Source: a virus (Duplodnaviria; Heunggongvirae; Uroviricota; Caudoviricetes). From it: a stretch of 14,810 bases of DNA. Below, piece after piece: positions 1 to 3,000 of the stretch. A program made the position numbers. Numbering within the stretch: position 1 is the stretch's first letter; each line of letters begins with the position of its first letter. The DNA lies in IMG/VR virus record IMGVR_UViG_2698536307_000010; one strand, written 5' to 3'.

Positions 1-3000
1 CGGCGCTTAGTGCTGAATTCACTATCGGCGAAGGTGAGTTGATGGCTCATGATGTCCCTCTGGGATGCGCTCCGGATGAATATGATGATCTCATATCAGG
101 AACTTGTTCGCACCTTCCCTAATGGACTCAACAGGTTTGTCATTACGGATATTACAGGTAGTGCAGAAACCTACCCTGTACTTATTGATACGGTGGAAGT
201 TAAAGCAAACAAAGCTGGAGCAGCCGCATAATTGCTAAAAAAAGCCGCCAGCGGCAGGAATGGAAGCTGGCGGAGGTAATCCCAATGGAGAATGTAAAGA
301 AAAGATGCTTTCGTACATTGGTTTTTAAATGAAAACAATTCTCATTGTCAACCATAACGGTAAGAAATTATGACATTTATTCATCAGGTGATGCTGTACT
401 TCTGTACGGCGGTCTGTGTGCTGTATCTTCTTTCGGGTGGGTACAGGGCTGTGCGCGATTTCTGGTGCAGGCAGATTGATAAAAGGGCCGCTGAGAAAAT
501 CAGCGCCAGTCAGTCAGCCGGAAGCAAACCCGAAGAGCCCGTTACTCCTTAACAACCCCTTTCAGCGAGAAAATCCCATGTCAGAAATCACATCCCTGGT
601 CACTGCAGAGGCAGTGAAGGAAGTCCTGCGCTCTGAAGAAGTCCGGAGCGCACTGAAACAGAAACTTCGCCAGAACCTTGAGTCGCGTCTTGATGCAGAA
701 GTGGATGCCATTCTGGATGAGCTGCTGGGCGTACCAGCGGTTCCTGAGCCGGAAGGTATCGCGGGTGACGGGAGTGCTTCAGATGGCGGTGAACCTACAC
801 CTGACAGCGACATGATGATGTAAGCATGCGCAAGGGACCATCGGTGTGTGCCGGTGGTCTTTATATTGTTGTGAGCTTCCGGATTGCGGGAGACGGGGTA
901 TGTACCAGATGGAAAAAATCACAACAGGTGTGTCATACACCACGTCAGCGGTGGGAACGGGCTACTGGTTCCTGCAGTTGCTGGACAGGGTTTCCCCGTC
1001 TCAGTGGGCGGCAATAGGCGTGCTGGGGAGTCTGCTGTTTGGGCTGCTGACGTACCTGACTAACCTGTATTTCAAAATCAAAGAGGACCGGCGTAAGGCG
1101 GCGCGGGGAGAGTAAGCTGATGAGCAGGAAATTCCGCTATGGTTTATCAGCGGTCGTTCTGGCGCTGATTGCTGCGGGCGCTTCTGCGCCTGAAATCCTC
1201 GACCAGTTTCTTGACGAAAAAGAAGGTAACCACACCACGGCATACCGTGATGGTGCGGGTATCTGGACTATCTGCCGCGGTGCCATCCTGGTGGATGGCA
1301 AACCTGTCGTTCCGGGCATGAAGTTGTCGAAGGAAAAATGCGACCGGGTTAACGCCATTGAGCGTGATAAGGCGCTGGCATGGGTGGAGAAAAACATCAG
1401 AGTGCCACTGACCGAACCGCAGAAAGCGGGCATCGCGTCATTCTGTCCGTACAACATCGGGCCTTCGAAATGCTTCACCTCAACGTTTTACCGGAAACTG
1501 AACGCAGGAGACCGGAAAGGTGCATGTGCTGAAATCCGCCGATGGATATATGACGGCGGCAGGGACTGTCGGAACCGCTCAAATAACTGTTACGGGCAGG
1601 TATCGCGGCGTGACCAGGAGAGCGCGCTGGCGTGCTGGAGTATCGACAGATAAGCAGAATATTCTGCTGAAAAATGCCGTTGACCAACGCGAACGGATAA
1701 CACGAAACCCTGCGAACTGGCAAAATTTAAGTGAGTAAAAGTAAAAACCCCGTTTGTTGGCAGCAAGCGGGGTTTTGTGTTTCTGACCTTGAATAAGGCA
1801 AGGGAGAAATTATGGGTAGGGAGGTTCTTTCCCTGTGAGGAAGTATAAAAGATTCTTTCTGAGGTTGTCCATTATGAAAGGCATTGAGGTGGAGACGCCA
1901 GCAAGTCTGGATTTAACAAGAGCGGCAGCTTTTGCCATTCGTATTGTGGCAATTGCTGTTCTGGTCTGGGCAATCCGTTGGTGGTGATATGAATCGTGTG
2001 CTGTATGGCGTGCTTATTGTCCTGCTGCTTGGTTGTGGATCGCTGTGGCTGGCAACAGACCATTACCGTGATAACGCCATCACCTACAAAGAGCAGCGAG
2101 ATGATGCGAAGACAAAACTCAGCCAGGCGAACGCCACCATTGCTGACATACAGCAGCGCCAGCGTGATGTTGCTGCACTCGATGCCAGATACACTAGGGA
2201 GCTTGCTGATGCTAACGCGACTATTGAAAGTCTCCGTGCTGATGTTTCTGCTGGGCGTAAGCGCCTGCAAGTCGCCGCCACCTGTGCAAAGTCAACGACC
2301 GGAGCCAGCGGCATGGGCGATGGAGAAAGCTCAGGACTTACAGCAGATGCTGAACTCAATTATTACCGTCTCCGAAGTGGAATCGACAAGATAACCGCGC
2401 AGGTTAACTACCTGCAGGAGTACATCAGGATGCAATGCCTCGATTAACAGAGCCAGCTCAATCGCTGGCCTTTTTTATGAGGAGAGATATAACCTGAATC
2501 AATGCCAGTGCATTATCAACAAATGGATCACTGGGTAAGCTCGTTTGGTTTTAAATGTCCGTCGAGAATCAGATTGTGATTTTCCCGATGCAGAACCAGT
2601 GTGCCCATATAATCAGGTTTAAATCTCCATCCATTCATTTTTTTTGCAATTCTGGACAGACAGTGATTATGTGTGAAAATCACAGTAACATGATCTGATT
2701 TTGATATTTTAAGGATATTATTTACTGCGTTATCATCACATGTCGATATGTCCGGAATAGTTGCTGTCTTACCTCCCGAAAAAAAAGTGGCTGTCTGCAT
2801 TGTTCGGAGTGTGTCTGTAGAATAGAGACTGTAGTATGGAAACATTCTTCTGAATTTATCTCCATATTGTTGAGCTTTGTTAGCTCCGTTTACTGTGATT
2901 CCCTCATGTGCTGAAAGACATATTCTTTGGGAGCGATCGCATCTTTCCCCATGCCGGATGAGAAAAATAATGGGATGTTTCTGGTTAATCTCAGTGACAT

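Follow-up and report, generated by a model that had tools for sequence, protein, structure and literature searches.

What occupies the interval between the cargo genes and the holin gene in the late region of a prophage, and does it form an expression unit of its own? The question is raised by positions 232-900 of a stretch of viral DNA of 14,810 nucleotides (IMG/VR record IMGVR_UViG_2698536307_000010, Caudoviricetes), referred to here as the window. A preliminary description of this segment had reported two small open reading frames (ORFs) bracketed by hairpins, had recognised neither encoded protein and had proposed an autonomous moron. Positions 119-14689 are 99.8% identical to the chromosome of Escherichia coli FORC_069 and 98.7% identical to O104:H4 chromosomes, and the window is the late region of an stx-less E. 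coli prophage of the 933W type (short-tailed, lambdoid). The annotated gene order in FORC_069 is Q antiterminator, SASA family esterase (nanS-p), DUF1378, DUF826, class II holin and lysozyme, followed by a small ORF, Rz, a lipopolysaccharide (LPS) heptose-phosphate phosphatase gene on the minus strand and the terminase. This order puts the two ORFs in the accessory interval between Q and S of the late operon, the lambdoid moron position to which they had been assigned.

Segment 232-900 is a mosaic piece of this interval and consists of three separate units. With high confidence, these are a small RNA (sRNA) gene on the opposite strand, a pair of late-transcribed genes, and a terminator together with a hairpin that masks the Shine-Dalgarno sequence of the holin gene. 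The best explanation of the segment as a whole joins this anatomy to a late pair of proteins acting at the inner membrane, and we give it slightly less than an even chance of being correct.

Two genes of catalogued families

The pair consists of the following genes.

370-552, plus strand: DUF1378 gene, 60 aa, predicted bitopic inner-membrane protein (Pfam PF07125, phrog_494, transmembrane segment, dN/dS)
578-823, plus strand: DUF826 gene, 81 aa, predicted cytoplasmic acidic protein (Pfam PF05696, phrog_311, dN/dS, AlphaFold)

Both ORFs are present on the plus strand as described, and comparison with the annotation of the 99.8% identical E. coli chromosome matches them to RefSeq proteins WP_000142783.1 and WP_001290235.1, respectively. 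Contrary to the initial impression, both proteins belong to catalogued Pfam families. In profile searches the product of 370-552 matched DUF1378 with 122 bits (E 1.1e-35, residues 1-58 of a 59-position profile) and that of 578-823 matched DUF826 with 153.1 bits (E 2.3e-45, positions 1-75 of 75); both matches are full length and exceed the Pfam gathering threshold, which is 25 bits for either family.

The reading frames were examined in about 90 related loci, which yielded 21 and 29 distinct nucleotide versions of the DUF1378 and DUF826 genes, respectively. The ratio of nonsynonymous to synonymous substitution rates (dN/dS) is 0.21 (DUF1378) and 0.25 (DUF826) in the annotated frames, as opposed to 1.4-2.8 in shifted frames, and variable sites are in excess at third codon positions (23/17/39 and 19/23/50 at first, second and third positions). 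Both ORFs are thus real genes under purifying selection in their annotated frames. The opposite case, that the region is non-coding or encodes a single 135-aa ORF of the phrog_8301 type, is scarcely credible. Such an ORF does exist (416-823, GTG start) in the DUF826 frame, where it overlaps the 3' half of DUF1378, and long calls of a similar kind are found in databases (P0002, P0041, phrog_8301). However, purifying selection acts in the DUF1378 frame over 370-552, where the shifted frames give 1.6-2.2, the long calls have N-terminal extensions that lack conservation, and divergent homologues retain both short ORFs. The database entries of 130-140 aa labelled DUF826 and phrog_8301 represent the DUF826 frame extended too far, over the 3' end of DUF1378, and the pattern of selection marks the extension as non-coding. 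That the two ORFs are joined by a programmed frameshift or fusion, as phrog_8301 and these entries might suggest, was accordingly dismissed, the long calls being over-extended or frameshifted. The label 'head completion protein' given to DUF826 in phage records PQ600364.1 and PQ600366.1 was likewise set aside, as no profile backs it.

As described earlier, the 60-aa protein has a single candidate transmembrane segment, one hydrophobic stretch at residues 3-24 (Kyte-Doolittle 1.93). It is immediately followed by a net charge of +3, and the isoelectric point (pI) of the protein is 8.6. Because a hydrophobic segment at 3-24 precedes net positive charge, DUF1378 is predicted to adopt an N-out/C-in topology. 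AlphaFold models it as a single long helix (residues 2-50). The basic tail had also been described as containing a cysteine; Cys33 is present in the window protein, but most homologues have arginine at this position. The 81-aa protein is indeed acidic (pI 4.1, 18 acidic and 7 basic residues). Its AlphaFold model contains helices at 10-17 and 20-49, with block means of the model confidence score pLDDT of 90-97 over residues 21-50 and values below 50 in the tail. Together with the alignment, the model divides DUF826 into a conserved helical N-terminal domain (1-52) and a variable, disordered, acidic tail that ends in MMM.

The C-terminus of DUF826 (812-820 in the window, and homologues) shows a hydrophobic tip after a variable acidic, Pro-rich linker. 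The tip nearly always reads MMM, MML, TML, AMM or TTL, even in members that are only about 40% identical, and could resemble a docking or degron motif.

Distribution of the pair

The two families comprise 111 and 122 clusters among 5.8 billion proteins, nearly all from E. coli or Shigella, and a profile search of 1.84 billion representatives returned 55 matches to DUF826. No DUF826 relative was found in the genome contigs of 185,579 species representatives, and the DUF1378 profile retrieved only Cedecea neteri from genome contigs; both families are very narrow. The pair is carried by 306-309 of 50,697 phage records, nearly all of them Stx (Shiga toxin)-converting. DUF1378 corresponds to L0106 of phage 933W, and the adjacent gene L0107 is presumably DUF826. 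Phages 933W and VT2-Sakai/Sp5 have the same order of nanS-p, DUF1378, DUF826, S21-type holin and signal-anchor-release (SAR) lysozyme, at 88-100% nucleotide identity. The window copy differs from them in lying in an stx-less prophage and in having its nanS-p cut by the insertion sequence IS5, neither of which is an essential difference. The proteins and the locus are therefore already known, as catalogued DUF families present in the best-studied Stx phages. Searches by locus tags (L0106 and similar) and by Pfam and InterPro accessions found no papers on the genes, and only one paper mentioning both families was found, which does no more than list them between nanS-p and S (PMC10462455).

Homologues occur in five genomic contexts. 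The first is lambdoid: nanS-p, DUF1378, DUF826 and an S21-type holin follow one another in 82 loci, in which some of the pairs are only about 45-60% identical to that of the window. The second is that of E. coli Mu-like prophages, with the order gin, SASA esterase, DUF1378, DUF826, terminator, com and mom, and no holin nearby. In other Mu-like prophages (the third context) tail fibre genes are followed by DUF826 and DUF1378 in swapped order, with an acetyltransferase or Dam gene next; Cedecea presents a variant with DUF1378 alone after the tail fibre genes. In the fourth, Stenotrophomonas siphophages carry an S21-type pinholin, a SAR endolysin, Rz/Rz1, DUF1378 and a tail fibre gene. The fifth, locus L163, contains a holin, a GH19 endolysin, Rz/Rz1, an ORF of no assigned function and DUF1378. 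Every lambdoid and every E. coli Mu-like locus has the two genes next to each other; DUF1378 and DUF826 are a linked pair, kept together even in inverted order, and the unit always lies at accessory hot spots of late operons. Lysis cassettes provide three of the five contexts.

Two side observations belong here. A remote DUF826-like gene heads a four-gene block after Rz. In addition, Stenotrophomonas phage vB_SmeS_BUCT709 (OM816835.1, L103:2721-2936) has an unannotated 71-aa homologue of the S21-type pinholin upstream of its lysozyme gene, and its SAR endolysin is closely similar to that of the window prophage, so that nearly the same lysis cassette is found in phages of Enterobacterales and of Xanthomonadales.

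Immediately upstream of the pair, the lambdoid and the E. coli Mu-like loci each have a SASA esterase gene, although the two backbones are not otherwise related. This arrangement raises the possibility that the two proteins are accessories of the NanS-p esterase, serving its membrane tethering, release or regulation, and that nanS-p, DUF1378, DUF826 and the terminator form one unit. The plus-strand terminator is placed after DUF826 and not after nanS-p, no holin lies near the pair in the Mu-like prophage, and the N-terminus of NanS-p has no signal peptide obvious to the eye, all of which would suit such a role. However, the strict tie to the esterase fails because contexts three to five lack it: the pair, or DUF1378 alone, occurs without an esterase in Mu-like loci L159 and L104, in Stenotrophomonas phages and in L163. 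Conversely, the esterase is commonly present without the pair, a convergent sRNA gene separates the two in lambdoid phages, and in the window nanS-p has been destroyed by IS5 while the pair is intact. We consider an esterase accessory improbable. A strict tie to pinholin and SAR endolysin systems fails as well, in contexts two, three and five.

Expression of the pair

Is the pair an autonomous moron, as first proposed? With regard to presence and absence, it is missing from prophage PP2 of E2348/69, where nanS-p, PasA and holin S are found with nothing of the pair between them, and present in lambdoid, Mu-like and Stenotrophomonas phages; on the evidence of PP2 the pair is dispensable and mobile. 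With regard to the layout, the downstream terminator (833-872) is real, but the left hairpin belongs to the sRNA gene and no plus-strand promoter was found. A simple consensus scan detected no sigma-70-like promoter on the plus strand in 232-369, nor upstream of the pair in four other contexts. For want of such a promoter ahead of the pair, an autonomous promoter-gene-terminator unit is unsupported. In the Mu-like prophage only 34 nt separate the pair from the gene upstream of it, and in the Stenotrophomonas phage the start of DUF1378 overlaps the Rz stop codon. The simplest reading is that the pair is co-transcribed with the late genes. In the window it would have no promoter of its own and would be read from the Q-antiterminated pR' late transcript, so that its products would appear with the holin, the endolysin and the virion proteins.

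A model built on the initial proposal goes further: the moron would be expressed in the lysogen, with DUF1378 acting on the membrane as a toxin or excluding superinfecting phages, and with the acidic DUF826 as antagonist. Several features are in keeping with it: the pair occupies classic accessory hot spots of several backbones (ahead of S, behind Rz and at the right end of Mu), its presence is patchy among near-identical prophages, a terminator follows it here and in the Mu-like prophage, and it is retained even with the order swapped; the acidic linker and conserved hydrophobic tip of DUF826 might also serve as a degron or docking motif. The missing plus-strand promoter speaks against it in every context, as do the 34-nt gap and the Rz overlap, which fit late co-transcription. 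Moreover, DUF1378 occurs without DUF826 in two lineages, which would be odd for a toxin that needs an antidote, and PADLOC returned no matches for either protein. This model is unlikely, and late expression of the pair is preferred.

A convergent Esr41-like sRNA gene

The left hairpin had been taken as the left boundary of the module. It is instead the terminator of a convergent sRNA gene on the minus strand, of which the following parts can be distinguished.

237-316, minus strand: Esr41-like sRNA gene, inferred start at about 314-316 (Rfam alignment, locus comparison, variants)
237-273, minus strand: sRNA terminator, stem 245-252/266-273 and U7 from 237-243 (sequence, fold)
284-291, minus strand: invariant core of the sRNA, UUCUCCAU (variant comparison)
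322-351, minus strand: putative sRNA promoter, -35 TTGACA (351-346), 18-nt spacer and weak -10 TAAAAA (327-322) (read from sequence)

The stem of the hairpin (245-252/266-273) is formed by CCGCCAGC and GCUGGCGG, with a run of seven A residues before it at 237-243. By folding energy alone the hairpin does not stand out (z -1.6 and -1.35). On the plus strand A7 precedes the stem and AGGUAAU follows it, and the hairpin is therefore a terminator for the minus strand only; a minus-strand scan reported a terminator-like site with a T-run at 257-245. The promoter was not called by the consensus scan because its -10 element is weak.

Full-length alignment to the Rfam Esr41 model (model positions 1-74) covers 311-237 of the minus strand, at 20.7 bits (E 0.085, 301 nt searched). 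The Sp5/VT2-Sakai variants score 29.5-30.9 bits (E 0.03 for 30.9 bits). The window element does not reach the gathering score of 102 bits, and true Esr41 scores 108.6 bits. Aligned directly with the Esr41 locus, the element is homologous to it in the -35 TTGACA, the UUCUCCAU(G/U)GG core, the CCGCC.GC/GCUGGCG terminator and the U-tail. Among related prophages the element falls into at least four sequence types (A to D), three of which have the invariant core in common. Core and terminator are invariant across 11 sRNA variants, and the -35 element, the terminator and a tail of 7-8 U residues are common to all types, the -35 being TTGACA or, in the L050 type, TTGACT. Mosaic breakpoints at 232 and 345 bracket the sRNA cassette exactly, and the cassette is swapped independently of the flanking genes.

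Sequence and position together indicate that the minus-strand element is a new, as yet unnamed Esr41 paralogue, equivalent in position to PasC and EcOnc52. As one unit of the segment, it would run from about 316 to 237 from its own promoter and would end at a Rho-independent terminator that abuts the nanS-p stop codon. Esr41 itself (RF02676) is an Hfq-dependent sRNA from SpLE1, an island of enterohaemorrhagic E. coli. The two have in common a length of about 75-80 nt, the -35 element, the UUCUCCAU(G/U)GG core, the CCGCC(A/G)GC...GCUGGCG terminator and the U7 tail. They differ in that the 5' stem-loop is not conserved in the window element and its -10 is weaker; the element also lies in a lambdoid late region, convergent with nanS-p, whereas Esr41 is in SpLE1. 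The literature on Esr41, which reports Hfq-dependent regulation of fliC, of the enterocyte-effacement locus (LEE) and of iron-uptake mRNAs, concerns the SpLE1 copy only (PMC5286369).

EcOnc52, detected by Hfq cross-linking and analysis of cDNA (CRAC), and PasC/PasA, detected by Northern blot and by ligating and sequencing interacting RNAs (RIL-seq), are experimentally established sRNAs (PMC4104026, PMC8550237, bioRxiv 10.64898/2026.05.13.724894), and the convergent architecture has been described (Tree et al., 2014; Zhu, Shabalina and Storz, 2026). EcOnc52 of Sakai Sp4 (L105:1999-2076) and PasC of the enteropathogenic E. coli strain E2348/69 (L003:2333-2410) have the position and orientation of the window sRNA. 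Like PasA, PasC, EcOnc51, EcOnc52, AsxR and AgvB, it is encoded opposite to the strand of pR' transcription and shortly before the holin region, and, as in other sRNAs of the moron site, its terminator borders on the stop codon of the cargo gene upstream (nanS-p). Its body is unrelated in sequence to PasA, PasC and EcOnc52, only the GCCAGCG-type terminator being similar, and AsxR of Sp5 lies at a different intergenic site, 2.1 kb upstream. In VT2-Sakai/Sp5 this AsxR gene (Rfam, 88 bits; minus strand, L068:1-53) and the Esr41-like element about 2.1 kb from it make two convergent sRNA genes, one on each side of nanS-p.

A small hydrophobic ORF next to an oppositely oriented sRNA gene, whose promoter is 19 bp upstream of the ORF start, invites comparison with type I toxin-antitoxin pairs, DUF1378 being the toxin and the antisense sRNA its partner. 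The sRNA (316 to 237), however, overlaps neither the ORF nor its ribosome-binding site, since its inferred 5' end at about 316 lies 54 nt upstream of the ATG. Its pairing with local translation-initiation regions is no better than that of shuffled controls, and we therefore reject a cis-regulatory or type I link. In addition, the sRNA cassettes (types A to D, breakpoints 232 and 345) are swapped independently of the ORF, the sRNA is absent from the Mu-like, Cedecea and Stenotrophomonas contexts, and E2348/69, which lacks the pair, still has an sRNA at this position. A toxin-antitoxin relationship is thus very improbable.

A terminator and a hairpin ahead of the holin gene

Two structures separate the pair from the holin gene.

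833-872, plus strand: intrinsic-terminator-like hairpin (833-862) with T-rich tail (863-872) (scan, fold, conservation)
876-892, plus strand: hairpin CUUCCG-GAUUG-CGGGAG over the holin Shine-Dalgarno sequence (GGGAG, 888-892; ATG at 900) (conservation)

The terminator-like right hairpin with a T-rich tail noted at the outset is present and is a plus-strand terminator conserved across loci. It has 13 pairs, and the segment 824-885 folds with -23.1 kcal/mol (z -2.3); the tail is ATATTGTTGT. Five divergent sequence types of the DUF826-to-S spacer all form a hairpin at this place with a U-rich tract behind it, and both sides of stem pairs have changed together, e.g. from G-C to A-U and from C-G/A-U to G-C/G-C. 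The tail in the window (UUUAUAUUGUUGU) is weaker than that of the Sp5-type variant (UUUUUUAUUGUUGU). A plus-strand terminator is still found just upstream of the holin in the E2348/69 prophage without the pair, and in the Mu-like prophage a hairpin with a U-tract directly follows DUF826.

The stem of the second hairpin (876-892) is nearly invariant and its loop varies across loci (GAUUG, GAUAA, GUGAA), a pattern that suggests a role in control of the S-gene start. Together, the terminator and the hairpin over the ribosome-binding site would keep Q-independent transcription and translation off the holin gene, stopping read-through from expressing it. The dual-start motif of the holin, MYQM, lacks a basic residue between Met1 and Met4, where the S protein of phage 21 has a Lys; the control of the holin start site may thus differ from the S21 paradigm.

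A possible role in lysis

What would a late pair of this kind do? In the proposed mechanism, DUF1378 would be a single-pass inner-membrane protein with a basic cytoplasmic helix and DUF826 a cytoplasmic protein with a long helix and an acidic disordered tail, and the two would act jointly, late in infection, where the inner membrane faces the cytoplasm. We tentatively propose, as a possibility with clearly less than an even chance, that they adjust lysis or envelope events in the manner of an antiholin or releasin; they would then be an accessory and not a core lysis function. A sizeable share of the probability stays with functions other than those discussed here. In a Stenotrophomonas phage DUF1378 directly follows Rz, and both the pinholin and the SAR endolysin of that phage are homologous to those of the window; DUF1378 also follows Rz/Rz1 in L163. 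The 60-aa protein has generic features of holins and antiholins (a transmembrane domain and a charged C-terminus) and adjoins lysis genes in three of the five contexts but not in the other two. Among the functions first suggested for the pair, which included a lysis-timing modulator, the lysis reading alone draws support from gene context, and that support is mixed.

Small membrane and soluble proteins are known as accessory lysis regulators in other phages, such as T4 RI/RIII, P1 LydB and the 'releasin' gp25 of Mu. The pair resembles them in small size, in combining one transmembrane helix and a charged cytoplasmic part with a small soluble helical partner, in its predicted late expression and, in three contexts, in adjacency to holin, endolysin or spanin genes. 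It differs from them in that no sequence or profile similarity was detected and in that it also occurs away from lysis genes. A bolder version of the proposal makes the pair an unrecognised two-component lysis regulator that would act on pinholins or membrane-tethered (SAR) endolysins, be exchanged as a cassette among lambdoid, Mu-like and Xanthomonadales phages, and time the release of toxin and phage by Stx phages; we regard this as distinctly unlikely.

Several observations weigh against a late pair acting in lysis and against the accompanying sRNA assignment. Two of the five contexts, the right ends of Mu-like prophages, are far from lysis genes. In L163 DUF1378 accompanies a non-SAR GH19 endolysin, so that it is not strictly bound to pinholin/SAR systems. 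The pair is lacking from many prophages that do carry nanS-p, PasA and the holin (Zhu et al., 2026), from which it follows that the S21 holin does not need it. Profile, PADLOC and Protein Data Bank (PDB) searches gave no holin, antiholin or defence-family match and no solved homologue: neither protein has a relative in NCBIfam, in PADLOC (E up to 1) or, by sequence or profile, in the PDB, and in Pfam, NCBIfam and PHROGs no holin or antiholin profile matched, the only hits being DUF1378 and families of unknown function. The promoter scans were simple consensus scans. IS5, 250 bp upstream, may disturb late transcription in the window copy. As for the sRNA, Tree et al. list no Hfq peak at its Sp5 equivalent, its -10 element (TAAAAA) is weak, and expression of the window variant is a prediction from sequence.

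Essentially all sequenced Stx-converting phages carry the pair between their lysis genes and the toxin/nanS-p cargo, and if it tunes lysis it would affect the amount and timing of Shiga toxin and phage release by the lysogen. The segment is a known locus, better annotated, and not a new kind of system, and its terminator is ordinary. What is added here is the purifying selection on both genes, the movement of the pair between unrelated phage backbones, and the placing of an Esr41-like sRNA paralogue, a holin-insulating terminator and a holin ribosome-binding-site hairpin on a much-studied map.

Flanking features of the window

The remaining features adjoin the segment on either side.

1-118, plus strand: right end of an insertion sequence of the IS5 family (identity of 99% or more to ISKpn26/IS5-like elements, 4148 plasmid records)
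119-231, plus strand: 3' remnant of nanS-p, a prophage gene for a SASA sialate O-acetylesterase, last 37 codons (identical to the end of WP_000874467.1, the SASA family carbohydrate esterase of FORC_069)
900-1115, plus strand: S21-type class II (pin)holin with the MYQM dual-start motif (Pfam PF04971, E 7e-33; RefSeq 'class II holin family protein')

The inverted repeat of IS5 ends at 118 and is followed by the CTAA target site (119-122). The insertion cuts nanS-p 113 nt before its stop codon; the gene is intact in FORC_069 and O104:H4. Positions 1-400 are contiguous in no E. coli genome, and related prophages align only from 119 on. IS5 could be polar on late transcription into the DUF1378-DUF826-holin region, or could drive it.

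Terminator-like sites are enriched in 1-2600, where 14 were found and 2.7 are expected. A strong one, a hairpin of 15 pairs (z -3.85), lies at 1744-1776 after the endolysin gene. At gathering thresholds, no Rfam family was found within 1-2600; a weak rimP match at 1669-1808 and matches to STnc460, a snoRNA and PrrF in 276-432 were at chance level and were discarded. An ORF of 37 aa at 1874-1987, hydrophobic and annotated as hypothetical protein WP_000675931.1, directly precedes Rz, an unusual interruption of the R-Rz junction. A further accessory gene occupies a classic moron position after Rz, on the minus strand (2528-3142); its annotation is LPS core heptose(II)-phosphate phosphatase. Recombination breakpoints, seen as the starts of alignments in related loci, recur at 232, 345 and 442 among related prophages.

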